From the IMG/VR virus record IMGVR_UViG_3300021425_003921: 20,000 nt of DNA. One strand, 5' to 3'. The DNA is from an uncultured virus (IMG/VR IMGVR_UViG_3300021425_003921) (taxonomy: Duplodnaviria; Heunggongvirae; Uroviricota; Caudoviricetes). The position numbers and the translations under genes were made by a program. Of this stretch, positions 1,772-19,645 are shown piece by piece. Each line of letters starts with the position of its first letter. The first letter of the stretch is position 1. Under the pieces are notes generated by a model. The model was not told where the DNA came from and did not search any database. It saw only the letters and a program-made list of their open reading frames with translations.

Positions 1772-1783
1772 AGTAATCTTTTT

Positions 1784-1859
1784 CCTATATATAGTTATTC
1801 ATAGGGAAACCGCTTTTCCCTCTAATCTAATATTAGATGTTTTCTCCTATATATAGTTT
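1784..1859 (-). promoter_or_regulatory. Two tandem TATA-type boxes (AACTATATATAGG) separated by a hairpin and a palindrome, upstream of the repeat-protein gene
   Basis: cctatatatagtt at 1784-1796 and 1846-1858. Inverted repeat agggaaa/tttccct at 1803-1821; palindrome atctaatattagat at 1825-1838. Confidence 0.6.
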
Positions 1860-4467: not shown

Positions 4468-4488
4468 AAGTGTATCTATGATACACAA

Positions 4489-4502
4489 CTACTTATAGTT
4501 TT
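4489..4502 (-). promoter_or_regulatory. TATA-type promoter AAAACTATAAGTAG
   Basis: Terminal G is 22 nt before ATG 4467. Spacer has gtgtatc-3nt-gatacac inverted repeat (4470-4486). Confidence 0.7.
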
Positions 4503-5653
4503 CACTCGTAATTACGAATCGTTAATCCCACAGGGAATCGAGGAATTCCTGCAGAAGTGTAGTCTTGGAACTTCACCGTTAATTTTTTGCCCACATATTT
4601 TTTGCCATCTTTGAGTAATTTGGCTCTCTCGGCACGAGTGCCTTTAGGACGAACCGTAAAGCGTTTCTTGGTTTTGGGAACTTCACAAGTCCAAATAACA
4701 GTTCCGGCATCATTGCCTTTTCCTTCCTGATAACCTACAATTTTAAATTCGGCATCATCGAATTTTTTATATTTTTGAAGATTATAAGAACGCTTTCCTT
4801 CGTAGGGGCTGGCAACATTTCGAATCATAACTCCTTCGTATCCAGCCTGTAGATTTTTAGTAAGAAGAGTTTCAATATCTTGAAGATTTTTAACTTGATA
4901 AATTGGAACCATAGTTAATCGCTTAGAAGTATCTTTTTTAACCAATTTGGTGGCTTCTGCATATCTCTTAGCAAAGGTTTTTCCGGGGTCTTTGGTATCG
5001 ATTAGATCGAAAACATTAAGTTTTACTTTTTTAGAATCGGCCACATCTTGAGGCTTTAATTTTTGCTTTCTTACTAAGCCTACAACTCGTTGAAAGTTTT
5101 CGGCTTGGTCTTTTCCAAGTTCGGTAGAATATAATTCTCCATCCAAAATAATGCCTTCGGGGAGTTTAATCTTTTTAAGAGCATCTCTGATTCCAGGAAG
5201 TTCTGGGAAGGGTTTATTGTTTCGAGACAGTAAAATAACATTACCTTTATGAATTTGAGCCAAACATCGAACACCATCTAATTTGGGTTGGGCAATAGCA
5301 GGCAATTGAATTTTTTTAGCGTGTTTTTCGTAGTTTTGAGCCAACATGGCTTTAACTCTAATAGATCCGACAGCACCCTTTCCAGAAGTATTGGTGGTAT
5401 AACCAGCATCCTTTTTCTTGGTGATTAAAGAATCAAATTGTGATTTGGATTGTTCTGCAAGTGAACGACCGGCTTTGCCTTTAGTGATTACCACTCCTTT
5501 GGTAGTAACCATTTTTCCTCCCTTGACACCGGTAGAAACTTTAATAACATGGTTGGAACCAACTTGTTCAACCCACCCTTTCCAATGACGGATTTTTCCA
5601 GTAGTATCAATTTTATAAAGATTGGTGGGGCCCAAAACAATAATGTTTGCCAT
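4502..5653 (-). CDS. lig: ATP-dependent DNA ligase (viral type)
   Basis: Motif I QPKLDGVR, III LDGELY, IIIa VFDL, IV EGVMIR, V KYKKFDDAEF, VI PRFP. N-terminal LYKxxxxGKIRHW domain. Start 5653 fixed by promoter spacing. Confidence 0.95.
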   Translation of the reverse strand: MANIIVLGPTNLYKIDTTGKIRHWKGWVEQVGSNHVIKVSTGVKGGKMVTTKGVVITKGKAGRSLAEQSKSQFDSLITKKKDAGYTTNTSGKGAVGSIRVKAMLAQNYEKHAKKIQLPAIAQPKLDGVRCLAQIHKGNVILLSRNNKPFPELPGIRDALKKIKLPEGIILDGELYSTELGKDQAENFQRVVGLVRKQKLKPQDVADSKKVKLNVFDLIDTKDPGKTFAKRYAEATKLVKKDTSKRLTMVPIYQVKNLQDIETLLTKNLQAGYEGVMIRNVASPYEGKRSYNLQKYKKFDDAEFKIVGYQEGKGNDAGTVIWTCEVPKTKKRFTVRPKGTRAERAKLLKDGKKYVGKKLTVKFQDYTSAGIPRFPVGLTIRNYE

Positions 5654-5674
5654 AATATTTATTAGGGGTATCAT

Positions 5675-5687
5675 CTATATAAAGTTT
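5675..5687 (-). promoter_or_regulatory. TATA-type promoter AAACTTTATATAG
   Basis: Terminal G is 22 nt before ATG 5653. Confidence 0.7.
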
Positions 5688-6021
5688 ACGGAGTTTTTCT
5701 TTTTAGATCTAATTCACAAACGGTGCAAATTAAACGAGCCTCTGAAGTGTGAGTTCTAATTTTATCCCATGATTGATCTTCTACAGGCATAGGTAACACA
5801 GATTCATCAAGAGATCTAATTCGTAGATATTGCCAAATAGTTGAATTACAATGTGGACAAGCCCCACCTAAAGCCGAAACTAACCAATCGTGTTTTTCTT
5901 GACGAAGTGATTTTTTATTGGCTTTAGCCCGAGGTTTGATATCTTCAGCATTGGCACGATAATATTTTTTATTATATTGAGCCATATATTGCTTCTTCTT
6001 TTCGGGATTGGAATAGGGCAT
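5686..6021 (-). CDS. HNH-fold zinc-binding protein, probably catalytically inactive paralog of 1873-2274
   Basis: MPYSNPEKKKQY...DWLVSALGGACPHC...SWDKI...LICTVC aligns by eye with the first HNH; the catalytic HH is replaced by RS. Confidence 0.7.
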   Translation of the reverse strand: MPYSNPEKKKQYMAQYNKKYYRANAEDIKPRAKANKKSLRQEKHDWLVSALGGACPHCNSTIWQYLRIRSLDESVLPMPVEDQSWDKIRTHTSEARLICTVCELDLKRKTP

Positions 6022-6042
6022 AAGATGATTTTATCATCTCGA

Positions 6043-6055
6043 CTATATATATTTT
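6043..6055 (-). promoter_or_regulatory. TATA-type promoter AAAATATATATAG
   Basis: 22 nt before ATG 6021. Spacer has agatgat-3nt-atcatct inverted repeat (6023-6039). Confidence 0.7.
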
Positions 6056-6067
6056 GTCTTCAAGACC

Positions 6068-6382
6068 CTACATCATGTTTTGCAAAAAGGCTAAAAATCC
6101 TGGAACGGCGGCTACTAATAAAGCCCACCAACGATTTAGTTTTCGATCGGCCTCAGCCACCTTTTCTTCGATAACTGCCAACCGGGTAGTTAGCGGGGGT
6201 TGTCCGTTACCATCACGGACGGTTTTCAATAATCCGGAAAGGTCTTCTTTGAGATCTCCAACCGTGTGTTCTAAATTACTAAGAGAATGAGAATAAGAAT
6301 CAGAATCGGCAATAAAACCTTGCATCATATCTGCAAAGTCACGAAGGGCTTCTTCAACTCCGATTAAATCATCACGAGGCAT
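6068..6382 (-). CDS. Coiled-coil protein with one C-terminal transmembrane helix (XhlA/holin-like architecture)
   Basis: Heptad-like region followed by RWWALLVAAVPGFLAFL; SD AAGGAGTGA upstream. Function is inference. Confidence 0.6.
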   Translation of the reverse strand: MPRDDLIGVEEALRDFADMMQGFIADSDSYSHSLSNLEHTVGDLKEDLSGLLKTVRDGNGQPPLTTRLAVIEEKVAEADRKLNRWWALLVAAVPGFLAFLQNMM

Positions 6383-6387
6383 TTAAT

Positions 6388-6534
6388 TCACTCCTTAAGA
6401 AAACGAAGTGATTTAGCAAGTAAAACTTGGGCACAATGATTCAAATGTTGCAATCGATGAGCAACATTATTACAATGAACTTGCGTCATAATGGCGGAGT
6501 GTTCGGCTTTTTGAACTGCTAATTCAAACTCCAT
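6388..6534 (-). CDS. Small hypothetical protein (48 aa, not in ORF track)
   Basis: MEFELAVQKAEHSAIMTQVHCNNVAHRLQHLNHCAQVLLAKSLRFLKE. ATG is 22 nt from the TATA box at 6556-6568 and the ORF fills the gap. Confidence 0.6.
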   Translation of the reverse strand: MEFELAVQKAEHSAIMTQVHCNNVAHRLQHLNHCAQVLLAKSLRFLKE

Positions 6535-6555
6535 GGACTGATTTTATCAGCCTTG

Positions 6556-6568
6556 CTATATATAGTTT
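6556..6568 (-). promoter_or_regulatory. TATA-type promoter AAACTATATATAG
   Basis: 22 nt before ATG 6534. Spacer hairpin GGCTGAT-AAA-ATCAGTC. Confidence 0.7.
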
Positions 6569-6575
6569 AGGGTTA

Positions 6576-6830
6576 TTAATAACCATTTCGCTTTAATCCC
6601 CATAGATTGACTTGATGGCTACGAGTTCGGCTAAGAGAACTGGTATCTACTTTATCTAATAACACAAATTCTGAATTGCCTCGCAAGGCAAAGGTAATTT
6701 CCCGGGGTGTGGGAACATGGCGGCGACCGGAAGTAACAATGGCTTGTCGAATTTGTTCAGCAGTAGCGGGATGTCGAGCCAAAAGGGTTTTGGCATGATC
6801 GATGATTACTTGTTGTTTTGAGCGGCCCAT
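6576..6830 (-). CDS. Small basic protein, putative winged-helix DNA-binding; paralog of 10902-11141
   Basis: TAEQIRQAIVTSGRRHVPTPREITFALRGNSEF vs TAQTMIDRLFDVGRREIPPKRSLSALMKQDPDF. Confidence 0.6.
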   Translation of the reverse strand: MGRSKQQVIIDHAKTLLARHPATAEQIRQAIVTSGRRHVPTPREITFALRGNSEFVLLDKVDTSSLSRTRSHQVNLWGLKRNGY

Positions 6831-6851
6831 ATAATCCTTTGGGATATACTA

Positions 6852-6865
6852 CTATTTGTAGGTTT
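6852..6865 (-). promoter_or_regulatory. TATA-type promoter variant AAACCTACAAATAG
   Basis: 22 nt before ATG 6830. Confidence 0.55.
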
Positions 6866-6887
6866 CGGTTATACCAAACAAGGCAAT

Positions 6888-8909
6888 TTATTCCTCAGCA
6901 ACCAAATCAACCCCATCAGAAGATACGGATACAAAGTCAATATCACAGACATCGTTATCACAGAATCGCTCGGCTACAATTTCTTCACCCTTAACACGAC
7001 CAAAGTTGAGTTTGCCAAGTCCAGATTTCATGTCGTTGTAAGTAGATAAATCGATAGCCTCATATGGCATTTGTGGGAAAGCCCCGAAGTCAAGTTTCGG
7101 AAGGAAAGAAATTCCTTTTAATTGATATTGGAAAACATCAAGGGCGGAAGCAATTTGCGAACCTTCAGTTTCGGGTTGGAAAGTCACGGTGCAAGAAACT
7201 TGATTATCGGCCCAATAGCGTTGAGCGACGGCAGCCAACGATAATTGTTCCCACATAGAAACTTGGTCTACGGTGCGAACTCCTTCACCAACATCTACGG
7301 GAATTTCGACGACGACGGTATCTTCTTCAGCACCGACACAAGGTTCGACCTTGTATCCGGCCTTAACTAATGAGGGAACCAAATTGGAGATTTTGCCTAA
7401 TCGCATTCGACGAATATAATATCGGCTCTCGGGAAAGTGAATTCCGGGGGTTGCACCCGCCAATAATGATACGGTGCCGGACGGCTTAATACTGGTAGTT
7501 TTAATAGATTTAGGAATGGCGAACCAATCAGAATATTCGGTGTCTAATTTTTGAATGTGGTCATATCCCGTATCCATCCAATTAATTAGATTACTCATTC
7601 CTCGATCTGCGAGGAATTGGGCAATTCCAGACATACTACAACCAATTCGTCGGTTGCGTAGCATTACTCGGTTGGTTTCCGGCCAATGGGTTTTACCAAG
7701 AGTCACAGTTTTGGCATACAGATAAGCGTATTTGAGAGTCTTGAGATAATCTTCGATGGTTTCGTGATTGTTGGGAAAAGTTTCCACAAGGCAACACAAT
7801 TCATAAGATTCTAAAGTTTGTTCCAAACACGGATTACCGCCTTTGGCTCGGTGGTCTTTGTTATTAATAGGGTCTTTCATTCGGCCATAAGCCTTCATGT
7901 TATCCAACCACGCATAGCCGGGTTCACCATTGAGGTTCACTCTTTCAGCCGTTGGGCCATAATCCATACCTACGGTTGCGAAAACGGAGTTATTAGAAGT
8001 CCATCCGTATTCGGCACGATGGGGATTTACTTCGTAATTTTTAAGGTCAATGTATTCTTCTGAGTCGGCAGGACCAAACACAATTTCGGCGGTGCGTCGG
8101 ACATTGCCAGCGACTACACACTTGCCAATCAAATTCATGATATCTACAATAGCAGTTTGACTGATAGGAGATCCGATTTCTTGAGATAGCACGGAATCGA
8201 TTTGAGTGTGAAGATCAATAAGGGGTCGAGGTCCGGAAGATTCGCCTCCAAAACCACGAATGGGTTCTCCAGCCGCTCGAATTTCAGAATAATCAAAAGT
8301 AATTGGGGCGGTGCCGAGGAAATAAGATTCAATTTGCATTCTAACAGAATCTACCCATCCTTCTCGGGTATCGGGAATAACAAATTGTTCGGGGCGACGA
8401 GTAGTTGAGGGGCCTTTGATTAATACCTTTCCAGCACCTTTGACATCGAATCCAACGCCAACACCCAACATAGAAGCATCCATCAGGAAGGTAAAGGGAG
8501 CCGAAAGATCTTCTTTAAGATTTTCGGTGGACACGAAAGCACAGTTATTGAGAGCAGCAAAAAGTCCTTTTTCTTCCGTGATGGGTGTTCCCATGGCCCA
8601 AAGCCCTCTTCCCGGCGGTAAGAATTTCATGTTGAAAATACGGTCATACATTTCTTGAGCAGAATGTTGGGCTTTCCAAGCATTCCAACCTAAGCCATGT
8701 GTTTCAATATGTCGCTTTTGCATATTATAAGTTCCTTCGACAACACGGCGAACAGTTTCCCACCATTGTTCGTTTTTTCCATCGTCCTTAAGGCGACTGT
8801 AAGTGCGGTTGTAAACCAATTCTCCAAGACCGTTAAATCCGAAAGGAGCCTTTTTGCGACGGTATTTTTCGACGAATGAATCGGTGAGGTAGAACTTGTT
8901 TTCAGACAT
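6888..8909 (-). CDS. nrdJ: Class II adenosylcobalamin-dependent ribonucleotide reductase, monomeric RTPR type
   Basis: YNRTYSR, PPGRGLW, LNNCAF, GNVRRTAE, radical-cysteine loop GNPCLEQ, KPSGTVS, C-terminal CDNDVC redox pair. 673 aa. Confidence 0.96.
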   Translation of the reverse strand: MSENKFYLTDSFVEKYRRKKAPFGFNGLGELVYNRTYSRLKDDGKNEQWWETVRRVVEGTYNMQKRHIETHGLGWNAWKAQHSAQEMYDRIFNMKFLPPGRGLWAMGTPITEEKGLFAALNNCAFVSTENLKEDLSAPFTFLMDASMLGVGVGFDVKGAGKVLIKGPSTTRRPEQFVIPDTREGWVDSVRMQIESYFLGTAPITFDYSEIRAAGEPIRGFGGESSGPRPLIDLHTQIDSVLSQEIGSPISQTAIVDIMNLIGKCVVAGNVRRTAEIVFGPADSEEYIDLKNYEVNPHRAEYGWTSNNSVFATVGMDYGPTAERVNLNGEPGYAWLDNMKAYGRMKDPINNKDHRAKGGNPCLEQTLESYELCCLVETFPNNHETIEDYLKTLKYAYLYAKTVTLGKTHWPETNRVMLRNRRIGCSMSGIAQFLADRGMSNLINWMDTGYDHIQKLDTEYSDWFAIPKSIKTTSIKPSGTVSLLAGATPGIHFPESRYYIRRMRLGKISNLVPSLVKAGYKVEPCVGAEEDTVVVEIPVDVGEGVRTVDQVSMWEQLSLAAVAQRYWADNQVSCTVTFQPETEGSQIASALDVFQYQLKGISFLPKLDFGAFPQMPYEAIDLSTYNDMKSGLGKLNFGRVKGEEIVAERFCDNDVCDIDFVSVSSDGVDLVAEE

Positions 8910-8931
8910 GAAATAAAAGTCTTGCTTCCTC

Positions 8932-8944
8932 CTATTTATAGTTT
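8932..8944 (-). promoter_or_regulatory. TATA-type promoter AAACTATAAATAG
   Basis: 23 nt before RNR ATG 8909. Confidence 0.7.
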
Positions 8945-9043
8945 GACACGAAGGTTTCTAAACCCTCTTTATTTTTGTTTAGTTTTATTTGGCTTGATTA
9001 TAGTTGTTTGGTATTAGGCGGACTCAAGACCCATTTTCTGGAG

Positions 9044-9057
9044 ATACCTATAAATAG
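9044..9057 (+). promoter_or_regulatory. TATA-type promoter ATACCTATAAATAG (divergent from RNR promoter)
   Basis: 23 nt before ATG 9080. Confidence 0.7.
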
Positions 9058-9079
9058 GTGACAACGGTAAGATGGTGTC

Positions 9080-9268
9080 ATGAAGATTCCAGAAATTTTC
9101 GTTGCCAAGGTTCGTGATTATCTGTTAAACCGACATAATACTCGATTAAAGGCGGTGTTATTGACTATGATTGAGGAGTTAGAAGCCGAAGACATTGATA
9201 AAGCCGCTCTTAGAGAAATGTTGGATGAGATTGAAGATGGAAAAATTACGGGTGATTTCGGTGCCTGA
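9080..9268 (+). CDS. Hypothetical protein (62 aa, helical, acidic)
   Basis: ORF with promoter at the conserved spacing. Confidence 0.7.
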   Translation: MKIPEIFVAKVRDYLLNRHNTRLKAVLLTMIEELEAEDIDKAALREMLDEIEDGKITGDFGA

Positions 9269-9506
9269 TTTAGTTTATAATGCCTTAATCCAACTAACAC
9301 GGATTATGTTATACAACTCTTCGGAAAGGTATGTAGACTTATGTATTCAACTGCTTAATGAAAATCAAAATCATCGTCAATATGACGCTTTAGAAAAAAT
9401 CTTTAATGATTTTATGCAGTTTTTAGATGAAGAACCCAATGAAGAAGATCGACAACATATGGATGAACATCTTGAAAAAATTCTCAATAATGAATTTGAT
9501 TGGTAA
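9261..9506 (+). CDS. Hypothetical protein (81 aa, acidic)
   Basis: Likely GTG start 9261 after SD GGTGA (9251-9255), overlapping the upstream stop. Confidence 0.65.
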   Translation: MPDLVYNALIQLTRIMLYNSSERYVDLCIQLLNENQNHRQYDALEKIFNDFMQFLDEEPNEEDRQHMDEHLEKILNNEFDW

Positions 9507-9517
9507 TCTATAAATAG
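9505..9517 (+). promoter_or_regulatory. TATA-type promoter AATCTATAAATAG
   Basis: 22 nt before ATG 9539. Inverted repeat cataaaa-taa-ttttatg (9525-9541) includes the start codon. Confidence 0.7.
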
Positions 9518-9538
9518 TAGAGGGCATAAAATAATTTT

Positions 9539-9946
9539 ATGATTCTTACTTGGAATCCTGCTTTTAGAATGCTGTTAGAAGCATTCAATGATGGAAACGA
9601 AAGAGTTTGGTTATTATATGGTTTAAATAATGCAAGTTTTTTAGAATCGGATTTTTGGCAAAGAATTAAAAACGCTAATCCTTATTTAGCCTCTTCGACC
9701 ATTATAGAAGAGTATGAAAAAATGGAAGACTCTTACGAATTCCCGGGTGGCGATTTAGAAGATTACAAAACAAACTTTAAAAAAATATTAATGAGTCCTA
9801 ATTATCGTGAAGCAGAATTTGAGGGTATATGGGATGAAAGAGAAGAATGTTGGTATATCAACAATAATTGGTATTTGGCTCCTTTTGTTTTGACCCCCAA
9901 ATATTTATTACAACAATCTATTAATTATAATAAATTAAAGTTGTGA
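9539..9946 (+). CDS. Hypothetical acidic, aromatic-rich protein
   Basis: 135 aa; ends QQSINYNKLKL, a possible degenerate AINK motif. Confidence 0.7.
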   Translation: MILTWNPAFRMLLEAFNDGNERVWLLYGLNNASFLESDFWQRIKNANPYLASSTIIEEYEKMEDSYEFPGGDLEDYKTNFKKILMSPNYREAEFEGIWDEREECWYINNNWYLAPFVLTPKYLLQQSINYNKLKL

Positions 9947-10372
9947 TGCGGGGAAAATAGTGTAAATGTTTTCCCATTGACCTTCGCCCTGATTTTCCCA
10001 CCAAAAATGAATAGTAATGGGTGATTGTATTTTCCACGGATCGGCAATTATATCGGAAATAATGTTTCGAATTTTATCTACTTTATTAAGCCATGCAGGA
10101 TCCGAAAAGTTTTCTGAATCTTCTCTCTCGGCCATATAGTAAGGATTAGAACCCATAATGGATGGGCCTTCAGTATAGAATCCAGCAACATCGAAATTTT
10201 CATATTCGTCCCAAAATTCATTTTGGTCAAACATTCGAACCTTTAAAACTTTGGTGTCTTGACCTTTTTTAAGCATATTGGTAATATTAGCGGTTTCCCT
10301 TTCTGCATAATTTATATGCAGATATTGAAAAAAGACAACATCAGAATTGCGAAGCCAATTGATAATCCCCAT
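9935..10372 (-). CDS. Hypothetical protein, N-terminal IINWLR family
   Basis: Begins MGIINWLRN; SD GGAGGAG at the end of the upstream gene. Confidence 0.75.
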   Translation of the reverse strand: MGIINWLRNSDVVFFQYLHINYAERETANITNMLKKGQDTKVLKVRMFDQNEFWDEYENFDVAGFYTEGPSIMGSNPYYMAEREDSENFSDPAWLNKVDKIRNIISDIIADPWKIQSPITIHFWWENQGEGQWENIYTIFPASQL

Positions 10373-10380
10373 AAAAAGGA

Positions 10381-10743
10381 TTACTCCTCCTTACTATTTA
10401 ACTTTTTCTTTTCAGCATTTCGGGCTCGACGAGCCTCCATATCCAAATCAGCAAGATTCATAACCGCAAATTTAAAATATTTTTTTCTTTTACTATCATA
10501 CATCCAACGAAGTTTTTGAGTTTCGGTTTCGGCAGCATATAACTCATAATGTTTCATAGAACGAGCATCAATTACTTTGGCAGACCCTCCTTTAAATAAG
10601 GTGGTAATGGCCGTATCAACAAAAGAGGCTTTGGGTTCACCCTCTTTGGGATTTTCATGTTTAGTCCATCGAGGGGTGGTAAGTCCCGTCATCATAGATT
10701 TAAGTTTGGTTTGCGATACGGTGTCGCCTTCTTTAAACATCAT
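10381..10743 (-). CDS. Hypothetical basic protein (120 aa)
   Basis: ORF with promoter 23 nt upstream. Confidence 0.7.
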   Translation of the reverse strand: MMFKEGDTVSQTKLKSMMTGLTTPRWTKHENPKEGEPKASFVDTAITTLFKGGSAKVIDARSMKHYELYAAETETQKLRWMYDSKRKKYFKFAVMNLADLDMEARRARNAEKKKLNSKEE

Positions 10744-10761
10744 ATGGTGATATAACTATCA

Positions 10762-10890
10762 TCACCAATATATAGTTTCGGTCAAAAATCCAGCAGCCAT
10801 TACGCCGGCTATAAAGAAAACAATCATTATTTTAGTAGGCAAAGTAATATCATCATCAGGTGGATGAGGATCGTGAAGTTCCCAAGACAT
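10762..10890 (-). CDS. Small single-pass membrane protein (42 aa, not in ORF track)
   Basis: MSWELHDPHPPDDDITLPTKIMIVFFIAGVMAAGFLTETIYW; fills the intergenic gap. Confidence 0.55.
   Translation of the reverse strand: MSWELHDPHPPDDDITLPTKIMIVFFIAGVMAAGFLTETIYW
10766..10778 (-). promoter_or_regulatory. TATA-type promoter AAACTATATATTG
   Basis: 23 nt before ATG 10743. 16-mer AAACTATATATTGGTG is identical to the MTase promoter. tggtgat/atcacca inverted repeat. Confidence 0.7.
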
Positions 10891-10901
10891 CGATAATCAT
10901 C

Positions 10902-11141
10902 TCAAGCAATTCTCTTAAAGGTGGCGGGGCCACGAGTGGTAGTTTTGGGTAGTTGTTCAAAGTCAGGGTCTTGCTTCATAAGAGCCGACAAACTTCGCTT
11001 AGGTGGAATTTCTCGACGACCGACATCAAACAATCGGTCAATCATGGTTTGGGCAGTTACCACTTCATCAACCAAAACTAAAGATTTGGCGGCTTGATAA
11101 GAGGTTGGCTTGTTCTTTTTTCTAATAATTTTTTTGGTCAT
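10902..11141 (-). CDS. Small basic protein, putative winged-helix DNA-binding; paralog of 6576-6830
   Basis: Shares TAxx..GRRxxPxxRxxxxxxxxxxxF pattern; directly downstream of PCNA. Confidence 0.6.
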   Translation of the reverse strand: MTKKIIRKKNKPTSYQAAKSLVLVDEVVTAQTMIDRLFDVGRREIPPKRSLSALMKQDPDFEQLPKTTTRGPATFKRIA

Positions 11142-11145
11142 GGGG

Positions 11146-11868
11146 TCACTTCCTTGGGGCTACTAAGGCGGTCATGTCAATAGACTCGTAAGTCCATTGG
11201 AATTCAATTGGGTTGTCAGGACCACCACGAAGCGTGAGGTCTTGCTTGGGGGCAGCAGTTAAAACAGATTTAACTTCTTCGGTGGTAAATTGTGAGGAGC
11301 CAATAGTTCCGGTAACTGTTTGTTGAAGTGGTGTCCAAGAAATAACTTCGTCACCTGAACCAGTAGTCCACACTAAATCTTGGTTATCGTTAGCATTGAT
11401 AATAAAACTCAAATTTTTCCCTGAAGTTTTGATAAAGTCGTTAGCCTCTTTGCCGGGGATAGTGGCATCATAGTTATGGTCAATGGCAGGCCATTCAGAA
11501 ATTTGGTGCATAAGGTCTAATCGCAATAATTTGATGTTTTGACGAATGCCGTTGGCTTGAAGATAAAAGCGATCGTTTTCATAAGTAAAAACTAATTCAT
11601 CTTTGGCAGTAAGCGTTTTGATAATTTGTCCCATACGACTAAAGATAACACCAATATCTAAATGCGTTTGAGTAGATACCCAAGAATAATCTAAGAAGGC
11701 GTCGGCCGGGGCCACGATTCGCAACATTTTATAACGATTGCCATCAACTAACATAGTAGACAATCCTTCGGAATCCCATCGAAGAATTCCTTCTTCGTTA
11801 ATGGCTTCCATGGCTCGCAAAATATTTTTAGCAAGTGGCACTCTGATTTTGGCTTGTAGTCGGGTCAT
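11146..11868 (-). CDS. pcn: DNA polymerase sliding clamp (archaeal-type PCNA, divergent)
   Basis: 240 aa. N-terminal ILRAMEAINEEGILRWDSEGLSTMLVD..MLRI...AFLDY, IGV, late PIEF and C-terminal LVAPRK match the PCNA pattern. Confidence 0.85.
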   Translation of the reverse strand: MTRLQAKIRVPLAKNILRAMEAINEEGILRWDSEGLSTMLVDGNRYKMLRIVAPADAFLDYSWVSTQTHLDIGVIFSRMGQIIKTLTAKDELVFTYENDRFYLQANGIRQNIKLLRLDLMHQISEWPAIDHNYDATIPGKEANDFIKTSGKNLSFIINANDNQDLVWTTGSGDEVISWTPLQQTVTGTIGSSQFTTEEVKSVLTAAPKQDLTLRGGPDNPIEFQWTYESIDMTALVAPRK

Positions 11869-12951: not shown

Positions 12952-12972
12952 GAAGAAATTTAAGGTTACCAC

Positions 12973-12986
12973 CTATTTATAGATTT
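12973..12986 (-). promoter_or_regulatory. TATA-type promoter AAATCTATAAATAG overlapping the upstream stop codon
   Basis: 22 nt before ATG 12951. Confidence 0.7.
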
Positions 12987-13417
12987 TGCTTATTGATAGC
13001 GGCCACAAATTCGTAAGATGGCAATTCAGAAGACATAACTGTGGTGACGGCTCGTTCTCCGTTTCTTACTTTTTCTAAAGACCGTAAAGAAACAAAATAA
13101 GTGAGTTGAGGATCGAAATCCTCAGTTAAAAGACTAATTTTTATATTTTTGCCTTCTACACTACTACGGCGGGCGTATCCGGCCAATTCACTGTTGGTGC
13201 TTTGAAATTGATTATCAATCTTGGGAATATCTCCGTCCACAGGTAATTGAAAATTCAGGGCTGTATATTTTTGGCCGTCGGAAGTCATGTATGTTTTGAC
13301 ATCATAAAATCCTTGGTTAAGAATAATAACTCCGGTGTCTAAATCAATACTTCCAACAAGTTTTGTTCCTCCAGCAGTGGGAGACTCATAAACTCCGTAA
13401 ATATTGTAAGACACCAT
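12977..13417 (-). CDS. Hypothetical beta-rich protein with C-terminal AAINKQNL motif
   Basis: 146 aa with its own promoter. Confidence 0.7.
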   Translation of the reverse strand: MVSYNIYGVYESPTAGGTKLVGSIDLDTGVIILNQGFYDVKTYMTSDGQKYTALNFQLPVDGDIPKIDNQFQSTNSELAGYARRSSVEGKNIKISLLTEDFDPQLTYFVSLRSLEKVRNGERAVTTVMSSELPSYEFVAAINKQNL

Positions 13418-13438
13418 GCGATGACTTTATCATCGCTA

Positions 13439-13450
13439 CTATTTATGTTT
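13439..13450 (-). promoter_or_regulatory. TATA-type promoter AAACATAAATAG
   Basis: 22 nt before ATG 13417. Spacer hairpin GCGATGAT-AAA-GTCATCGC (13418-13436). Confidence 0.7.
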
Positions 13451-13454
13451 TTCC

Positions 13455-14852
13455 TTATTCCGTAGATTGAGAACGATTTAATGATCGCAAAATTGGTCGA
13501 AGATTAGAATTATCGTTAGAACCTCCATCCACTCGCCTTACGATATGATCGAAGTCGATAAGTCGTGGATGCACGGTAGTTCCGGAGATTGAACAAGTAA
13601 TCATGCCTTCAGAATCCATATGCGTTTCACGAAGTTCTTGGCGTTGCTTTTTGCTAATTGGTGCATTGACTTGAGGCATTCCGTTGGAATAAAGATGGTT
13701 TTCTAATTCTTCATAAGCCGTGTCAATCATGGCTAAATAGGATGAAGTATCAATACTATCTCCACGACCAGCAATTTTTACTGCAATCAAAGAAGTATTG
13801 ATTTGTGGTTCCTTTTGAACAAAATCATTAATCCATTTAGCAATAACTTGACTTTGCATAGAAAGATTAGAAATATTGTGATTTGCAAGTAAATGGCTTA
13901 GTATAATCGTGATGAAAATAGTCTTTCGAGGGTCATTACCCGAAAGAATTTCAATTCCATGTCCTGCAACTGCAGCGTAAAGATCTAAATATTGCCGTGT
14001 TTCATCTAACATATTCTTGAGATCTTTTTCAGAAAGGGTGCTCAAAGTATTGGTATCAAATTTAAACTCTTGACCATTTTTAAAGTTAGAATTATTGTTG
14101 ATATATTGATAATAATATTGTAGATGCTTAAACAAGGCTTGGATATTAGTAAGGTGGTCCATGTTTACAGAATAACCTTCATTACAATAATCTTTCCATT
14201 GTGATTTGTGAGCAAAATCATAAAGAGTTCTATAATTTGTTCGAAGATAGTTTCGAGAATGATATTTTTGCATGGGTTTAAGTCCTGTTGTCCCATCATT
14301 TAATCTAAGAAAAATATCTGCTGCTGTCCAACCATTACCTTTAGCAAATTCATACACATTAATTCTTGCATTTTCCATGTTATCTTGTTCAGTAGCAGGC
14401 AAATTGGTATAACTTCCAGAATATTTTTTTGCATTTTGATTTTCGGTAAGTGACATATATCGGCCTTGAATTTTAATATCATCATCCATATATTTCATAA
14501 GAGTCATAATTCGATGTTGTCCATCAATGATATAGTAACAAAAATTACCATCATCAAATTCCTTTTTCTCAACCATAATTTCTCCAATAGTAATATTACA
14601 AAGAACAGAATCTACCAAGCGACTGTTCCATCCTGTTTTTCGGTCTTGATATTTGCGTTGGTATTCATCAACCTTTAGACGACCTTTTTTATACAAATTA
14701 AAAAACTTTTGAAGGTTCCATGCTTGACAAGTTCCGAGGGCTTTTTTAAGTTGATTCTGTTTTGTGTTTGGTTTCTCTACCAAATCTTTTGGATCTGTGA
14801 CGACTTGGCTATTGACTGTTATGGCTTCTTCTTCTGTAATTACGACATTCAT
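13455..14852 (-). CDS. DUF262 (ParB/Srx-fold) plus C-terminal HNH nuclease, GmrSD-like
   Basis: YQRKY..W, LVDSVL, IIDGQHR and IFLRLNDG match DUF262 motifs; C-terminal CSISG..DFDHI...GGSNDNSNL..LN is HNH. ATG 14852 follows SD GGAGAGTGA. Confidence 0.85.
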   Translation of the reverse strand: MNVVITEEEAITVNSQVVTDPKDLVEKPNTKQNQLKKALGTCQAWNLQKFFNLYKKGRLKVDEYQRKYQDRKTGWNSRLVDSVLCNITIGEIMVEKKEFDDGNFCYYIIDGQHRIMTLMKYMDDDIKIQGRYMSLTENQNAKKYSGSYTNLPATEQDNMENARINVYEFAKGNGWTAADIFLRLNDGTTGLKPMQKYHSRNYLRTNYRTLYDFAHKSQWKDYCNEGYSVNMDHLTNIQALFKHLQYYYQYINNNSNFKNGQEFKFDTNTLSTLSEKDLKNMLDETRQYLDLYAAVAGHGIEILSGNDPRKTIFITIILSHLLANHNISNLSMQSQVIAKWINDFVQKEPQINTSLIAVKIAGRGDSIDTSSYLAMIDTAYEELENHLYSNGMPQVNAPISKKQRQELRETHMDSEGMITCSISGTTVHPRLIDFDHIVRRVDGGSNDNSNLRPILRSLNRSQSTE

Positions 14853-14907
14853 ATTTATCACTCTCCTGTTCTGATTTTACTTAAAAATCAATTACCCTTA
14901 TAAAGTT

Positions 14908-15660
14908 TTATGTATTGTTGTTGCCCATAAAGGAATCAAAATGAGTTTTAGACTTGGGATCTAAATCAATTAAAATGGCGGTGCGGTTGTGGTCTTCGCA
15001 AACCGGCCATGTGCTACAAGAACCTGCGAAACCATCTAAGACGACATCATTAGGGTCGGTGGTAGACAACACCATGCGTTTAATGAGGTCATAGGGGATT
15101 TGGTTATACCATCCTTTGTGTTCTGCTGAGCCAGCCTTAACCATATTTATTTCCCACCAATCATAAGGACTAACGCCCTTACTGCCTTTGGCAATTTGCT
15201 TTTGAACTCGTGGGTCATTTGGATTTTTGTAGGGCATCGGGTCAGCCTTGTTGTTAAACTTGGGTTGCTCACAATCTTGATGAACAAACCAAAGCAAAGC
15301 ACGGTGAGCCGTAGTAAATCGCTTTTTGGTCATACCAATGTTACTGGGATAAACCCACGAAATCCATTGTTGAAGTCGATAACCTTTGGACTCAATAATG
15401 GGAAGTAAACGAGCACAGGCTTCGGGATAGTGAACTAAGAAAGCCGAACCATCGGCTGACAAAATGGGTTTGAGGGCTTCAAAAGTATCTCCGATAAGAT
15501 CGTGATATTCGTTTTCGGGAAGGTTGTCATCAACAAGATTAGAATAACGGAAACCAATGTTGTAAGGCGGGTCAAAGAAAGCAGTATTGATTTCTTGTGA
15601 TTCAGTTTGCAGTTGTTTGAGGGCAGAAACAACATCGGTGTTGATAAAACGATGGGCCAT
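14908..15660 (-). CDS. DNA amino-methyltransferase, beta class (N6-adenine/N4-cytosine family)
   Basis: Catalytic motif IV FDPPY precedes SAM-binding motif I VLDGFAGS; 250 aa. Confidence 0.92.
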   Translation of the reverse strand: MAHRFINTDVVSALKQLQTESQEINTAFFDPPYNIGFRYSNLVDDNLPENEYHDLIGDTFEALKPILSADGSAFLVHYPEACARLLPIIESKGYRLQQWISWVYPSNIGMTKKRFTTAHRALLWFVHQDCEQPKFNNKADPMPYKNPNDPRVQKQIAKGSKGVSPYDWWEINMVKAGSAEHKGWYNQIPYDLIKRMVLSTTDPNDVVLDGFAGSCSTWPVCEDHNRTAILIDLDPKSKTHFDSFMGNNNT

Positions 15661-15681
15661 AATAATGGTTTACGAAACCAC

Positions 15682-15694
15682 CAATATATAGTTT
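15682..15694 (-). promoter_or_regulatory. TATA-type promoter AAACTATATATTG
   Basis: 22 nt before ATG 15660. Spacer inverted repeat tggttt-3nt-aaacca (15666-15680). Confidence 0.7.
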
Positions 15695-15695
15695 A

Positions 15696-16463
15696 TCAAA
15701 AGAGTGTCTTTTGTTCACCGACTTCTTGTGGTTCCGAAGCAATGTCTTCAAGACCTTGTAGGTTGGGATTGTTGCCGACGGCTTGGAAGATAATTTCTCG
15801 ATCAACTTCAGGATTCCATGTTTGGTCAATAAATTCCATAATGCGTTTGTAAGTTACGCTGGAAGGTTTTACACCGACTTCTTCTGAGGTGGTTCTAAAA
15901 TTAACTATGAAATCACCGATAGAACCATAGGTTTCGTAAATCTTTTTAGCAAGTTTCTTACCGACTCGTGGGATTTGTTCTAACACCGCATGATGTTTAT
16001 TGCTGGTAGAAGTTACTACCGTCACAGGACGAATTAATTGATGTAATTCTTCTTCTTCCATGCGAAGAGCATGACTTCTAATAAACCGAATAGTTTCGTC
16101 AAGGGAATCGGTATATACTACAGGAATGGCTTCGCTGGTAAGTCGGTTAAAAAATTGTTGGAGGGATTGAATCTGATTAGAATTGGCGGTGAAAATATCC
16201 CGAGGCGAGCCTTCGATAATAAGATAATTACGACCTCCAGAGGCTACTAAACGAGTGATTTGTTCTTGCATACGGCGAGAAGTCCAAGAAGAGTAAGCAT
16301 CACTCCATGTTTTTCGCTCGAATAACGAGAAATTCCCGGGGTTATCGTAATCATAAACTTTGATGTCGCCTTCGGAAAGGTTTTCTATGTCGGCATTGAG
16401 CAACATTTTGAACATAGTTTTAGTGTTGTCAGATTCTTTAGAATCAATGCTGATAGCGATCAT
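15696..16463 (-). CDS. ERCC4/XPF-family structure-specific nuclease with HhH domain and C-terminal clamp-binding motif
   Basis: IDSKE, GD...FERKTWSD, LIIEG, HhH IPRVGKKLA, C-terminal QKTLF. Start 16463 from promoter spacing. Confidence 0.88.
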   Translation of the reverse strand: MIAISIDSKESDNTKTMFKMLLNADIENLSEGDIKVYDYDNPGNFSLFERKTWSDAYSSWTSRRMQEQITRLVASGGRNYLIIEGSPRDIFTANSNQIQSLQQFFNRLTSEAIPVVYTDSLDETIRFIRSHALRMEEEELHQLIRPVTVVTSTSNKHHAVLEQIPRVGKKLAKKIYETYGSIGDFIVNFRTTSEEVGVKPSSVTYKRIMEFIDQTWNPEVDREIIFQAVGNNPNLQGLEDIASEPQEVGEQKTLF

Positions 16464-16484
16464 AAAAAATATACAAACAATCAC

Positions 16485-16517
16485 CTACTTATATGTTTGT
16501 TAGAAGATTATAAATAG
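16485..16517. promoter_or_regulatory. Back-to-back divergent TATA-type promoters
   Basis: Minus strand AAACATATAAGTAG (16498-16485) is 22 nt before ATG 16463; plus strand AAGATTATAAATAG (16504-16517) is 22 nt before GTG 16539. Confidence 0.7.
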
Positions 16518-16538
16518 TAGCGATGACGATGTTATTGT

Positions 16539-17033
16539 GTGACGGGAATTGTTAATTGGTTACGAGAGTCTGGTATATCGGATTATCCGTTGATTAGAAT
16601 AATTAAATCAGATAGTGCTGCGAGGGAGACCATAGGTGAAATTTTAGAAAACCAATTAGGAGTAGATATTGTAGATAACTCTGCTTATTTTGCTAATAAC
16701 AATGCTAACAAAATTATAGAAATTACAACCAATAACCTTGATCGGCCCCGTGTCGAGCGATTATTAAAATATCAAGATAAATATTTTAAGGATGCGACCG
16801 TAATTGTTTTAGAATCTTATAATGAAAAACAATTTCTTGATGATGTGGTTTTGGGGATAGATTATGGGCCATCTTACTTGCCGGTATGGGTTGCTAAATT
16901 TAATTTGAATGGTAATAATTATTATTTGGTTATTGATAATGAATTGGATTGTAGATTTGGTTGGGCAGTAATAAATAATCAAAAAACCCTTGTTACTACT
17001 TTGGAAGACTTATTGAGAAGATATAGGGATTAA
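16539..17033 (+). CDS. Hypothetical protein, N-terminal IVNWLR family
   Basis: Begins MTGIVNWLRE; first gene of a five-gene plus-strand operon. Confidence 0.75.
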   Translation: MTGIVNWLRESGISDYPLIRIIKSDSAARETIGEILENQLGVDIVDNSAYFANNNANKIIEITTNNLDRPRVERLLKYQDKYFKDATVIVLESYNEKQFLDDVVLGIDYGPSYLPVWVAKFNLNGNNYYLVIDNELDCRFGWAVINNQKTLVTTLEDLLRRYRD

Positions 17034-17035
17034 TC

Positions 17036-17557
17036 ATGTTGCCAAATTATAGTGTCACTTTGGACAAAAATAATCTTGTGGAAGAGATCGTTATCGATAA
17101 AGATTTATTTGTAAATGGTAAAAATTATTATATGAAAGTGATCGGAATCAACTCGTTTGGACATACTATTACTACTTACGAATTTAAAATCAAAAAAATA
17201 CCACAATTTTTTGATAATCGATTGTGGAAAAATTTTGATTTGGAGGGATTAATAATTTTTAATCCCTATGAGACTTCCAAAACCGAGGATACGGTTGTGT
17301 GGGATGGTAAGATAAAAAAACGACAGGTTATTCCTGAGGAGGAAAAATTTAGCCATTTTGATTCACAAATAGAAAGCATACTATCACAAAAATGGCCTAT
17401 TTGGAGTAAAGTTGAGGGGGTTTGGATTACTCCTGAATTTAAAGATGTTCCCAGTTTTTTGTATCGAGAATGGGTAATGGGAAATCTTTTGCAAGATATT
17501 GAAATTTCGTTTGAAGAAATAATCAATCCGATGGCTATCAATCAGGAGGTGATATGA
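17036..17557 (+). CDS. Hypothetical protein with C-terminal MAINQEVI motif
   Basis: 173 aa; coupled to neighbours. Confidence 0.75.
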   Translation: MLPNYSVTLDKNNLVEEIVIDKDLFVNGKNYYMKVIGINSFGHTITTYEFKIKKIPQFFDNRLWKNFDLEGLIIFNPYETSKTEDTVVWDGKIKKRQVIPEEEKFSHFDSQIESILSQKWPIWSKVEGVWITPEFKDVPSFLYREWVMGNLLQDIEISFEEIINPMAINQEVI

Positions 17558-18063
17558 TGACTTATTTTCCTTCCGAACAATGGAGTAATAAATTATTTTC
17601 AATGGGGCAATATGGAAGTATTTTCGATGAATTTTTAGATCTACCAAGTTCGTATAAATTACTGATGAAATTGGCTAAAGAAAACTTACAAAAAGGACCT
17701 ACTTCACAAGTTTCTTTTGGTCCTGATTATAACGAATATTTATTAGAATTATCAAAACAACACGGGATATTTTTATTGACTAATCCATCATATAAAGAAG
17801 ACCAAGATTTAGGAGATAATTTAATAGTGGTGCCTATGTTTATAGAACATAATAAACAAAGAGGAAGGTTAGAACCCACAGATGTATGGACAATTGATTT
17901 AGATAATCAAACTTATGATGGGATTCCGCTTAGCGATGATTATAATGGTTCGGTTTATGATATTTATAAATTAGGTAAGCCTTTTATGTTTAAAGTAGAA
18001 AATTTTTTCCGAAAACATTATGATGAAACTTATGATGCTATTAATAAAAGGAGGGTGTTATAA
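17554..18063 (+). CDS. Hypothetical protein with C-terminal YDAINKRRVL motif
   Basis: 169 aa; ATGA overlap, SD GGAGGTGA. Confidence 0.75.
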   Translation: MMTYFPSEQWSNKLFSMGQYGSIFDEFLDLPSSYKLLMKLAKENLQKGPTSQVSFGPDYNEYLLELSKQHGIFLLTNPSYKEDQDLGDNLIVVPMFIEHNKQRGRLEPTDVWTIDLDNQTYDGIPLSDDYNGSVYDIYKLGKPFMFKVENFFRKHYDETYDAINKRRVL

Positions 18064-18602
18064 TGTTTAAACCGGAAGTGTGGGCCATTATTTATAATCG
18101 GTTTAAAACCGATAAATATGATACTTCTCGTTGGTCTGATGCCGCAATTATGAAAACATTAAAGGGTTCGGATGTAACTTTAACATGGTATCCTGAAATG
18201 TCGGCAGCAGATTGGTGGACTTTTTATGAATTAGGTGATTTAACAGCAAATGATGAAAGAATAGTTGCTGAAGTTTCTTTGCCAAAAAAAGGTTTTTGGG
18301 CGAGATTACATCATGCTTATGCTACTAATAGAATACTTTTTACTGATAAAGATGAAAGGGAATGGTATGATGAATGGATAAAACCTTTTGATGATCCATT
18401 GAGGGAGGATTGGCCTGATGTATATACAAAAACCCCAAGAGATTATATGAATAATGCTCGCAATTATTTTGATAATGAAGCACCTATCGAAATGATGAAT
18501 CAAGAAAACTTTGATGTGAATAATCCTGCTGTTTTGTGGGAGTGGCGTCCACCTCAAGAAAATAATTATTGGCAAGCAATTAATAAGCAAGAGGTGTTAT
18601 AA
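18063..18602 (+). CDS. Hypothetical Trp-rich protein with C-terminal WQAINKQEVL motif
   Basis: 179 aa; TAATG overlap. Confidence 0.75.
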   Translation: MFKPEVWAIIYNRFKTDKYDTSRWSDAAIMKTLKGSDVTLTWYPEMSAADWWTFYELGDLTANDERIVAEVSLPKKGFWARLHHAYATNRILFTDKDEREWYDEWIKPFDDPLREDWPDVYTKTPRDYMNNARNYFDNEAPIEMMNQENFDVNNPAVLWEWRPPQENNYWQAINKQEVL

Positions 18603-19283
18603 TTGGTAGTCAAATCAGCCACTAAGAAAAAATTAATGGATTCTGGGTGGAGTGAACCTGCGGCTCATGAAATGGCAAAGGATAGACGATGGGACGATGT
18701 AAAAAAATTATCTCCCTCGGAAATAGAGGGTATTTTAATTGATGCTTATATTCCGGCACCATATATACCTAATACAACTACTGGAAGACCACTAAGTATT
18801 TATGATTGGTGGCTAACAACTAAAGGAACTTGGAGATTTAAGAAAACTTCTGAGGGGTATGATTTTGAATTTACATTTAAAGGCGATGATTACAAATATA
18901 GTTGGCTTCGAAAGTCTGGACAAGTTATAGAAAAAGAAATGCTTTTTGAAGGATTAGGATCTTTATTTGGTGGCAAAGGGCCTGCTGATTGGTGGTCTTG
19001 GGAAGAACTTGCTTTGGGTAAATTAAATCCCCATTTTGATGGTGTCGAAATCTCTCAAATAATAAAAGATATGGATGGCAAACAAAATATTTTGCATGAG
19101 GTTGTTACCAAAGTAGAAAATGGAAACTATCATAATTATGATGCATGGTTTCCTGAATCTATCAATCGAGTAGATGTTTTAGATGTTTTTGTTCCTGTAG
19201 AGCGTTGTCGGCACGGTGTTGATCGTAGAAAAGATTGTGATCAATGTGGTGGTTTTGATGATTTAGCAAGTTTGTTCGGTTAA
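18603..19283 (+). CDS. Hypothetical protein; N-terminus possibly related to the MGII RNA polymerase A'' N-terminal extension; C-terminal CxH..CxxC cluster
   Basis: 226 aa, TTG start after SD GAGGTG. The similarity is from recall only. Confidence 0.55.
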   Translation: MVVKSATKKKLMDSGWSEPAAHEMAKDRRWDDVKKLSPSEIEGILIDAYIPAPYIPNTTTGRPLSIYDWWLTTKGTWRFKKTSEGYDFEFTFKGDDYKYSWLRKSGQVIEKEMLFEGLGSLFGGKGPADWWSWEELALGKLNPHFDGVEISQIIKDMDGKQNILHEVVTKVENGNYHNYDAWFPESINRVDVLDVFVPVERCRHGVDRRKDCDQCGGFDDLASLFG

Positions 19284-19379
19284 AATAGCCGTCGCATAAC
19301 CGCAACCACAAACCCAATATCCATTTTGAGATTCCATCTTTTTAACAAAATCTCGGCAAGAGCAAACAGGACAACTCAT
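19263..19379 (-). CDS. Small zinc-ribbon protein (38 aa, not in ORF track)
   Basis: MSCPVCSCRDFVKKMESQNGYWVCGCGYATAILTEQTC; ATGA overlap with the upstream stop. Confidence 0.6.
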   Translation of the reverse strand: MSCPVCSCRDFVKKMESQNGYWVCGCGYATAILTEQTC

Positions 19380-19609
19380 AGTTCATTCCTCGAAATTTTA
19401 TCTAATTGGTCTGCCAATTCTTCATCGTAATCGGCTTCTTGGTCTTCAGTCGTAATAATAACAACGGGTGGGTCACGCCAACGACTACCCATTTCTAAAA
19501 TGGACTGCAATAGATAATGAATTGATTTGTGTTCTGAAACAGCCCCTGATTTGGTGGCCTCAATAAAACCTTGGAGAGATTCTAAGTCAATTCTAATTTC
19601 AGCAGGCAT
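19376..19609 (-). CDS. Hypothetical protein (77 aa)
   Basis: ATG 19609 lies 23 nt from the TATA box. Confidence 0.7.
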   Translation of the reverse strand: MPAEIRIDLESLQGFIEATKSGAVSEHKSIHYLLQSILEMGSRWRDPPVVIITTEDQEADYDEELADQLDKISRNEL

Positions 19610-19631
19610 GATAATCAATGGGTAAGATTAC

Positions 19632-19645
19632 CTATTTATATGTTT
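19632..19645 (-). promoter_or_regulatory. TATA-type promoter AAACATATAAATAG overlapping the upstream stop codon
   Basis: 23 nt before ATG 19609. Confidence 0.7.

Follow-up and report, generated by a model that had tools for sequence, protein, structure and literature searches.

In an uncultured Caudoviricetes virus (IMG/VR IMGVR_UViG_3300021425_003921), many genes have a short hairpin in the interval that separates TATA box and start codon; what do these hairpins do, and how did they arise? The window analyzed is a stretch of 20,000 nucleotides, the final 20 kb of a virus record of 74,005 bases (G000) which is itself a fragment. Nine stems had been cited in the window by an original prediction, and all nine were found in the sequence where it had placed them. 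The spacer stems are real, strongly non-random inverted repeats. A mutational origin, not considered in the original prediction, explains the data best. The reading preferred here, at a probability of about 0.4, is that the stems were copied into place and that some of them, under weak selection at some genes, may act as hairpins insulating a gene from read-through RNA, a function read from sequence patterns.

Promoters were called blind to hairpins on the 104 open reading frames (ORFs) of the 74-kb record, which gave 46 promoters with an A-rich element upstream of the TATA box. From the first T of TATAWATA to the start codon the distance is 30 nt in 38 of the 46, 31 nt in seven and 33 nt in one; the spacer is the 22 nt between TATA box and start codon. 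Base preferences over 480 spacers of the virus family are G at -22 and -19, A at -10 and a pyrimidine at -1. The archaeal TATA box lies at about -30 to -23 relative to the transcription start. Because the box is fixed 30 nt upstream, in agreement with that position, transcription probably starts at the A of the ATG and the genes are probably leaderless. In leaderless archaeal mRNAs the initiator overlaps the start codon (PMC7289017), and the melted region of an archaeal promoter runs from -12 to +4 (PMC4495717). The downstream arm of the stem is predicted to lie in the melted region, whose upstream edge would coincide with the loop, and no part of the stem would be present in the gene's own mRNA. 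The earlier suggestion that the spacer is the melting zone of probably leaderless genes fits the fixed 30-nt spacing. A T4-late-type reading of TATAAATA with a 22-nt leader was ruled out by that spacing, by the A-rich upstream element and by variants such as TTTAAGTA. A relative's RNA contig ends at window position 1825, and the TATA box at 1855 has its first T exactly 30 nt away; this is a weak hint, as contigs cannot show starts; the RNA data consist of one run (word share 0.05) in the form of contigs, which cannot map transcript ends. As a separate observation, the TSP3/GQ-repeat gene (window 1772-1855, minus strand) has its TATA box some 84 nt upstream. The resulting leader of about 54 nt contains a 7-bp stem (1803-1821), and a second TATA-like motif precedes the ATG by 22 nt; this leader is partly similar in the distant relative G007 and is a possible conserved leader element.

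When the spacers were folded against dinucleotide shuffles, a strong excess was found, equal on both strands. The mean RNA minimum free energy (MFE) of the 45 spacers with the TATA box at 30-31 nt is -3.36, against -1.13±0.18 for the shuffles (set Z -12.6). Individually, 20 of the 45 reach p<=0.05, and 18 fold at -4 kcal/mol or below where 2.8 are expected. The template strand is enriched alike (Z -12.9 with RNA parameters), and DNA parameters give Z -12.8 for the coding and -14.5 for the template strand. Control windows at the flanks of the spacer ranged in Z between +0.4 and -2.9, and for 54 genes with no TATA box Z was -1.3. On a strand-neutral score, 15 of 45 spacers reach at least 5.5 against 2.6 expected from halves swapped between spacers, and 10 reach at least 7 against 0.24; with 23-nt spacers scored whole, stem-bearing promoters at score 5.5 number 16 of 45. 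Relative to the start codon, the centres of symmetry are grouped at -9.5 to -12.

Pairing in these stems is unusually complete: 25 of 29 strong stems are perfectly Watson-Crick paired without internal mismatch, as compared with 76 of 259 control stems obtained by swapping halves. Position -10 falls in the loop in 29/29 strong stems, against 0.79 of controls. Loop lengths range from 3 to 9 nt, and the loop with its closing pair takes 26 different sequences among the 29, without conservation. Loops of 3 nt had been described as typical; they are no commoner here (11/29) than in control stems (88/259). G-T wobbles had been taken as the mark of a single-stranded structure on the coding strand, an interpretation that was not supported, since G-T does not significantly exceed A-C when the composition of the spacers is taken into account (p 0.07-0.7). 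The spacers are G-rich upstream and T-rich downstream whether paired or unpaired, so composition alone makes G-T exceed A-C. With a strand-neutral finder the 480 spacers gave 7 G-T and 3 A-C internal mismatches (control fraction 0.60, p=0.39) and, among outer-flank pairs, 11 G-T and 2 A-C (control 0.85, p=0.71). At unconstrained positions G-T to A-C is 15:4 in G000 (control 0.63, p=0.11), 19:6 with the closest clade added (p=0.07) and 8:10 in the relative G001. The share of G-T among all mismatches is raised (15/33, p=0.002), which would also be expected from transitions in a decaying palindrome. The two halves of the stem-bearing spacers differ in character (24 vs 214 spacers): the downstream half is atypical, with a GC fraction of 0.42 vs 0.20 (p=9e-8), and the upstream half is like that of ordinary spacers (p=0.66).

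Related genomes revealed constant geometry, variable sequence and compensatory changes together, in agreement with the original prediction. The metagenome loci L012 and L015 are 96.0% identical over 1608 nt, yet 5 of the last 11 bases of the spacer of their ERCC4 nuclease gene differ and none upstream, a poor stem in the former standing against a near-perfect one in the latter. In a second promoter of the same two loci a 7-bp stem is retained though 7 of 8 inner bases differ, and three adjacent compensatory pairs distinguish L030 from L037, whose protein is 97% identical. In a hand-picked family of seven members in G000, 87.5% of cells pair and the covariation score was reached by 3 of 500 shuffles; one pair occurs as C-G, A-T, G-C and T-A, always complementary. 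Comparison of eight genes with the closest clade gave the same stem in one, a stem of different sequence in three, weak or stemless spacers on both sides in three and a mixed result in one. A stem is kept with a different sequence in orthologues of the genes at 13417, 10743 and 16539: those of the 13417 gene in L012 and L014/L015 have stems of unrelated sequence, and the L014 orthologue of the 10743 ORF has a different perfect stem, a near-match to the spacer of another G000 gene (C1 14597). The N6/N4 methyltransferase gene has the same stem in L012-L015 and another register in clade B. Furthermore, promoters resemble one another: 12 pairs of promoters in G000 have at least 13 of 18 spacer bases in common (1.3 expected), and a strong stem is involved in 11; the stem-poor G004 and G002 have 2 and 1 (about 1 expected in each) and G001 has 8. 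In L012/L013 and L014/L015, different genes are preceded by an identical run of 14 upstream spacer bases.

Template switching was reported to yield perfect stems and multi-base compensations in a single event (PMC8794818), and transcription can promote it (PMC3820800). As perfect pairing, block changes and compensatory pairs are the patterns that PMC8794818 ascribes to this process, it is likely, from sequence comparison, that the stems were born by fold-back copying. In one step, fold-back template switching would rewrite positions -9 to -1, the region predicted to melt, as the reverse complement of the upstream half of the spacer, and stems would then spread via recombination between look-alike promoters. 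Covariation is here better evidence for a copying process than for function. A further proposal, which is doubtful, holds that the open promoter complex itself targets the rewriting: synthesis would stall or be nicked where the bubble has its upstream edge (-10), fold back and copy the upstream half over the melted region, and together with promoter exchange this would make a built-in generator of promoter variants. A lineage-wide mutator was rejected as the main cause, because the repeat excess in genes is modest and also present in stem-poor G002 and because template-switch footprints are not enriched. Perfect 7-bp repeats outside spacers number 58 in G000 against a Markov expectation of 33 and are about at or below expectation in six other records. 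In coding regions, inverted repeats compared with synonymous-codon shuffles number 575/471 in G000 (5 bp), with further counts of 164/125 and 47/35, and 1047/921 in G002; a modest excess was also seen in the closest clade.

The distribution of stems across relatives bears on whether the promoter needs them. Promoters with a stem at score 5.5 number 10/74 in G001 (3.3 expected), 2/58 in G002 (1.7), 1/51 in G003 (1.5), 1/58 in G004 (0.9), 1/32 in G005 (0.7) and 1/18 in G007 (0.5); G006 and G008 were excluded from these whole-record counts for too few seed promoters. Metagenome loci were grouped by ERCC4 identity and unique spacers with at least 6 net Watson-Crick pairs were counted, which gave stems in 7/20 spacers at 87-88% identity, 5/83 at 73-80%, 1/96 at 68-72% and 2/101 at up to 51%; the count for clade C is 1 of 96. 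Three loci (L007, L008, L011) were left out of the clade counts as duplicates of G001, G002 and G000, and 80 ribonucleotide reductase loci together with L004 were left out of the promoter counts. When viral contigs were scanned for exact occurrences of the family palindrome in a promoter setting, there were no matches. The stem is dispensable for initiation, being found at 16/45 promoters here and 1/58 in G004, which resembles clade C and has the TATA box TATAAATA as in G000. The stem is lineage-specific and optional, and this promoter type does not need it for initiation.

For the stems that are present, a hairpin in read-through RNA is the favoured function. The stop codon of most upstream genes is no more than about 60 nt from the ATG that follows, and their mRNA would therefore enter the spacer; there it would fold the stem and insulate the downstream gene from read-through transcripts. 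On this view a spacer would hold one of two elements, a Shine-Dalgarno motif for coupling, at core genes, or a stem for insulation, mostly at accessory genes. Shine-Dalgarno-like motifs occur in 0/29 strong-stem spacers vs 33/206 others (p=0.019). These motifs are kept in orthologous core-gene spacers of G004, which suggests that the spacer is read as RNA in read-through transcripts. Stems are found at 36/180 tandem vs 3/40 divergent promoters (p=0.07), 31 of the 36 tandem ones within 58 nt of the upstream stop, and in G000 they precede 12/22 accessory vs 4/23 core genes (p=0.013). The original prediction had also offered an RNA stem that blocks translation from read-through transcripts; the absence of Shine-Dalgarno overlap and the tandem and accessory placement lean toward it, but the block would not work by hiding a Shine-Dalgarno motif. 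Such occlusion was rejected as a general rule on the count of 0/29, only the weaker stem before the gene at 10372 being a case of it. A terminator was rejected as well: no U-tract follows the stems, a T4 tract occurs in 0/16 stem spacers of G000, and the start codon comes next. Several core-gene spacers at G000 C1 2635-24584 carry Shine-Dalgarno-like motifs despite a leaderless-type promoter of their own, and these too are kept in G004 orthologues; the sequences suggest dual translation of such genes from their own and from read-through transcripts. Given a copying origin, the chance of an RNA-insulator function is put slightly above even.

A number of results weigh against copying followed by insulation. 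Only 2 of 48 spacer mutation clusters pass a strict template-switch footprint test, and footprints overall show no excess (1/112, 7/450, 5/713 and 25/1008, against 2.8, 9.3, 8.2 and 21.9 expected). The upstream half is weakly constrained in any case, which blunts the half-asymmetry test, and a second copy of one family palindrome stands upstream of a TATA box, outside any melted region. Along minimum-spanning-tree edges within gene clusters, 52/236 arm positions changed on 17 stem-bearing edges and 485/2115 on 141 stemless edges; the arms thus diverge at the ordinary spacer rate, and strong purifying selection is not seen. One-sided changes between orthologues (9 G-T, 9 A-C, 17 others) carry no G-T bias, and the bias predicted by selection on RNA is not significant against the composition control. 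Strong stems stand at three divergent promoters in L014, the accessory-gene bias was not found in G001 (7/47 vs 3/27, p=0.74), and loci within clades are not independent. The arm divergence would suit a near-neutral scar, in which fold-back copying is a hot spot at active promoters of some lineages and stems are tolerated, then decay, provided that spacing, G at -22 and -19, A at -10 and the pyrimidine at -1 survive, with at most a small change of promoter strength. Free spacer positions diverge about like third codon positions (0.13-0.14 vs 0.10; 0.35-0.39 vs 0.35), the fold excess is the same on both strands, several lineages lack stems, and gain or loss occurs between 96%-identical relatives, all as a scar would predict. 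Yet orthologues of three genes retain a stem with unrelated sequence, stems exclude Shine-Dalgarno motifs and favour accessory genes in G000, and they raise the GC content twofold in a region otherwise AT-rich, for which a cost would be expected. The scar is thus possible at a low probability and is ranked second, after the RNA insulator.

The stems may also be operators, double-stranded sites for one or more viral dimeric repressors blocking the loading of RNA polymerase. The interval between the TATA box and the start site is a placement of operators for archaeal repressors. Seven promoters share a GATGAT-N3-ATCATC-like family that is present in clade B too, the exact TGAT-N3-ATCA core occurs four times in the record, every time at a promoter, and the AT-rich 3-nt centres and the strand symmetry suit palindromes bound by protein. 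At G000 C1 49502-49554, the TATA box of a 1084-aa gene (C1 49501) lies between two copies of a 19-bp palindrome, which are 34 nt apart; the upstream copy (-53..-35) overlaps the stop codon of the previous gene and differs by a compensatory outer pair. An operator role is possible for the TGAT-N3-ATCA family on these patterns, and this rival is strongest there; however, most stems are unrelated in sequence with loops of 3-9 nt, and the set has no common half-site or fixed spacing. Orthologues exchange one perfect palindrome for another, the four-way pair in the hand-picked family stays complementary, and the small candidate regulators have no Pfam or PHROGs match, their winged helix-turn-helix label coming from the original prediction only. 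Operators are rather improbable and are placed third. Fourth stands a DNA structure in promoter opening, a non-template hairpin or cruciform with A-10 in its loop that would aid melting or be read by a viral factor, as in phage N4. Its symmetry centre at about -10 to -11.5 is near the -11 of N4 (PMC4496689), position -10 is always in the loop, relatives carry their own TBP and TFB, and stems are present at divergent promoters. Nevertheless, 29/45 promoters here and most in the family are stemless with the same TATA type and spacing, and loops and closing pairs are not conserved. Pairing would require -19..-12 to be open, upstream of the melted region; the bubble is contacted by TFB and TFE at its upstream edge (PMC13502027). 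No RNA polymerase family was found in five records, although the PF00940 search among these had no positive control. With a viral RNA polymerase not found, loops unconserved and G004 all but lacking stems under the same TATA type, the N4-type role that had been suggested for these hairpins is unlikely, and promoter opening by a DNA hairpin is the least probable of the four accounts.

The order in PeSL cassettes is terminator before promoter. PeSL cassettes of T4-like phages resemble the present arrangement in their repeated promoter-plus-stem units before variable genes and their signs of exchange, but PeSL is a terminator/promoter composite (PMC4122927), whereas here the stem is downstream of the TATA box, without a U-tract and variable in sequence. 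Closest in working are the hairpins of T4 gene e and I-TevI (PMC3014915), in which a stem at the translation start exists only in transcripts initiated upstream; here the presence of the stem in read-through RNA and its absence from the gene's own transcript would follow from the 30-nt spacing and the nearby upstream stops. In T4 the Shine-Dalgarno sequence is sequestered by the stem, and transcription from the late promoter begins within the structure (PMC3014915), unlike the present stems, whose spacers hold no such motif (0/29) and which end before the AUG, wholly upstream of the probable start. Coliphage N4 promoters share an inverted repeat centred at about -11 whose stem bases are variable if paired. 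N4 requires a hairpin in each of its early promoters, where it forms on the template strand, its loop and closing pair are conserved, and a virion RNA polymerase recognizes it (PMC4496689); here there is a TATA box, loops are variable, the stem is missing at most promoters, and a polymerase gene was not found. Archaeal BRE-TATA-Inr leaderless promoters are alike in the A-rich BRE, the 8-bp TATA box and a pyrimidine-purine start on the start codon (PMC7289017), and unlike in that the palindromic spacer is a feature of these viral promoters. Template-switch hairpins (PMC8794818, PMC3820800) share perfect stems from one event, compensatory blocks, replaced loops with a kept stem and the link to transcription; they were described in rRNA, miRNA and yeast reporter genes, whereas here one promoter position in a virus is affected with no footprint excess elsewhere. 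A survey of perfect inverted repeats with arms of at least 10 bp in archaea and their viruses found a peak near -50 and a drop at the start (PMC13155455), and stems of 7-9 bp would be invisible to it. No description of this promoter palindrome was found in the open-licence literature, and the feature is most reasonably classed with the known promoter-plus-stem arrangements, as a variant of them.

Within the window, 9 of 16 TATA promoters reach a fold p<=0.05 (200 dinucleotide shuffles). The statement that the stems fill the TATA-to-start spacer holds for eight of the nine cited, which lie inside -24..-1; the ninth, at 9525-9541, spans -14 to +2. The four promoters called weak or devoid of stems, at 8909, 9080, 12951 and 16463, are stemless, and a further stem that had been overlooked precedes the gene at 10372 (Table 1). 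A search for Rfam families in the 20-kb window at gathering score gave no matches. Several unrelated accessory ORFs share an N-terminal head, about M-x-(E/G)-I-(I/V)-N-W-(L/I)-R, and look like new genes joined onto a common 5' end; they lie at window 3653, 4069, 4467 and 10372 (minus) and 16539 (plus), near 50580 of G000 C1, and in L014.

Table 1. Stems and stemless promoters of the window (p, fold test).
Feature	Position	Strand	Context
Perfect 7-bp inverted repeat, 3-nt loop	4470..4486	-	-19..-3 of ATG at 4467; TATA box 4490-4497; p=0.01
TGAT-N3-ATCA family repeat, 7 Watson-Crick pairs and outer G-T	6022..6040	-	Before 111-aa HNH-like gene at 6021; TATA box 6044-6051; p=0.015
TGAT-N3-ATCA family repeat, one G-T	6536..6552	-	Before 48-aa ORF at 6534; TATA box 6557-6564; p=0.01
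AT-only stem covering ATG at 9539	9525..9541	+	TATA box 9509-9516; spacer alone unfolded (MFE 0, p=1.0); not counted as member
G-T-rich 8-pair stem pairing a GGAGG Shine-Dalgarno-like motif	10373..10392	-	Before ORF at 10372; -6.4 kcal/mol, p=0.015; single T4-like case
Inverted repeat, longer loop	10745..10767	-	Before 120-aa ORF at 10743
8-pair TGAT-N3-ATCA family stem	13418..13436	-	Ends at -1 of ATG 13417; TATA box 13440-13447; p=0.005
6 Watson-Crick pairs and 2 outer G-T	15664..15682	-	Before N6/N4 methyltransferase gene at 15660; p=0.025
TGAT-N3-ATCA family stem, 3 G-T pairs	16520..16538	+	Divergent promoter, GTG at 16539; TATA box 16509-16516; p=0.025
7-pair stem, one G-T, 9-nt loop	19610..19632	-	Before ORF at 19609; TATA box 19633-19640; p=0.03
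ERCC4 nuclease promoter, stemless	16464..16493	-	Orthologue stemless in L012/L013, near-perfect stem in L014/L015
Other stemless window promoters	5653, 6830, 8909, 9080, 12951		

The genes of the window include an ATP-dependent ligase, a class II ribonucleotide reductase, a GNAT protein, a GmrSD-domain protein, the N6/N4 methyltransferase and the ERCC4 nuclease together with many unknowns. This gene set is largely common to the relatives, whose loci were collected by alignment-based scans; in scans for relatives with a single protein, the ligase gave one distant locus and ERCC4 none. Two relatives are records of 160-166 kb with inverted terminal repeats, and the genes of the relatives include PolD DP2, an MCM-like protein, a primase, TBP and TFB, viral TBP being found in 4/9 family records and TFB in 5/9 (for example L100:15740-16381 and L196:6067-6978). 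The TATA consensus varies by lineage (TATAAATA vs TTTAAGTA), a possible co-variation of viral TBP with its own box. A multisubunit RNA polymerase (PF00562) was found in 0/5 family records, which may be incomplete, with 14/14 controls positive; single-subunit RNA polymerase PF00940 was found in 0/5 records but also in no control genome, leaving that search without a positive control. The virus likely infects archaea of a marine type, with Poseidoniales as the likely host, because the organism names carried by three of 120 listed homologues of the Fe-S assembly protein are Ca. Poseidoniales (65%), Ca. Poseidonia (63%) and a Euryarchaeota archaeon. For Poseidoniales viruses with terminal repeats, the word promoter is not used in the excerpted passages of PMC11706807. 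Three metagenome-assembled genomes titled as bacteria contain contigs of this virus family (L193-L195), and these contigs are probably mis-binned. At L001:8665-10000 lie two tandem paralogues of about 215 aa without a Pfam match, which rank with the best-conserved family proteins (77-85% identity), have more copies in relatives and are candidate major structural proteins.

The stem occupies DNA that archaeal RNA polymerase has to melt. As the virus family has its own TBP and TFB and dozens of promoters that are nearly identical, the natural stem-bearing and stemless versions of the same promoter are a ready test set for the effect of the spacer on opening. The case also calls for caution, since compensatory changes and G-T pairs, commonly taken as proof of a functional RNA or single-stranded DNA structure, can be matched here by one-step copying and base composition. 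If the open complex does target the rewriting, this would be an undescribed route of regulatory evolution, by which accessory genes could change in a single step from a coupled to an insulated state or from a strong to a weak one, or the reverse. In conclusion, the stems are probably an optional tuning device rather than a required part of the promoter, and they would most likely act as a hairpin in read-through RNA.

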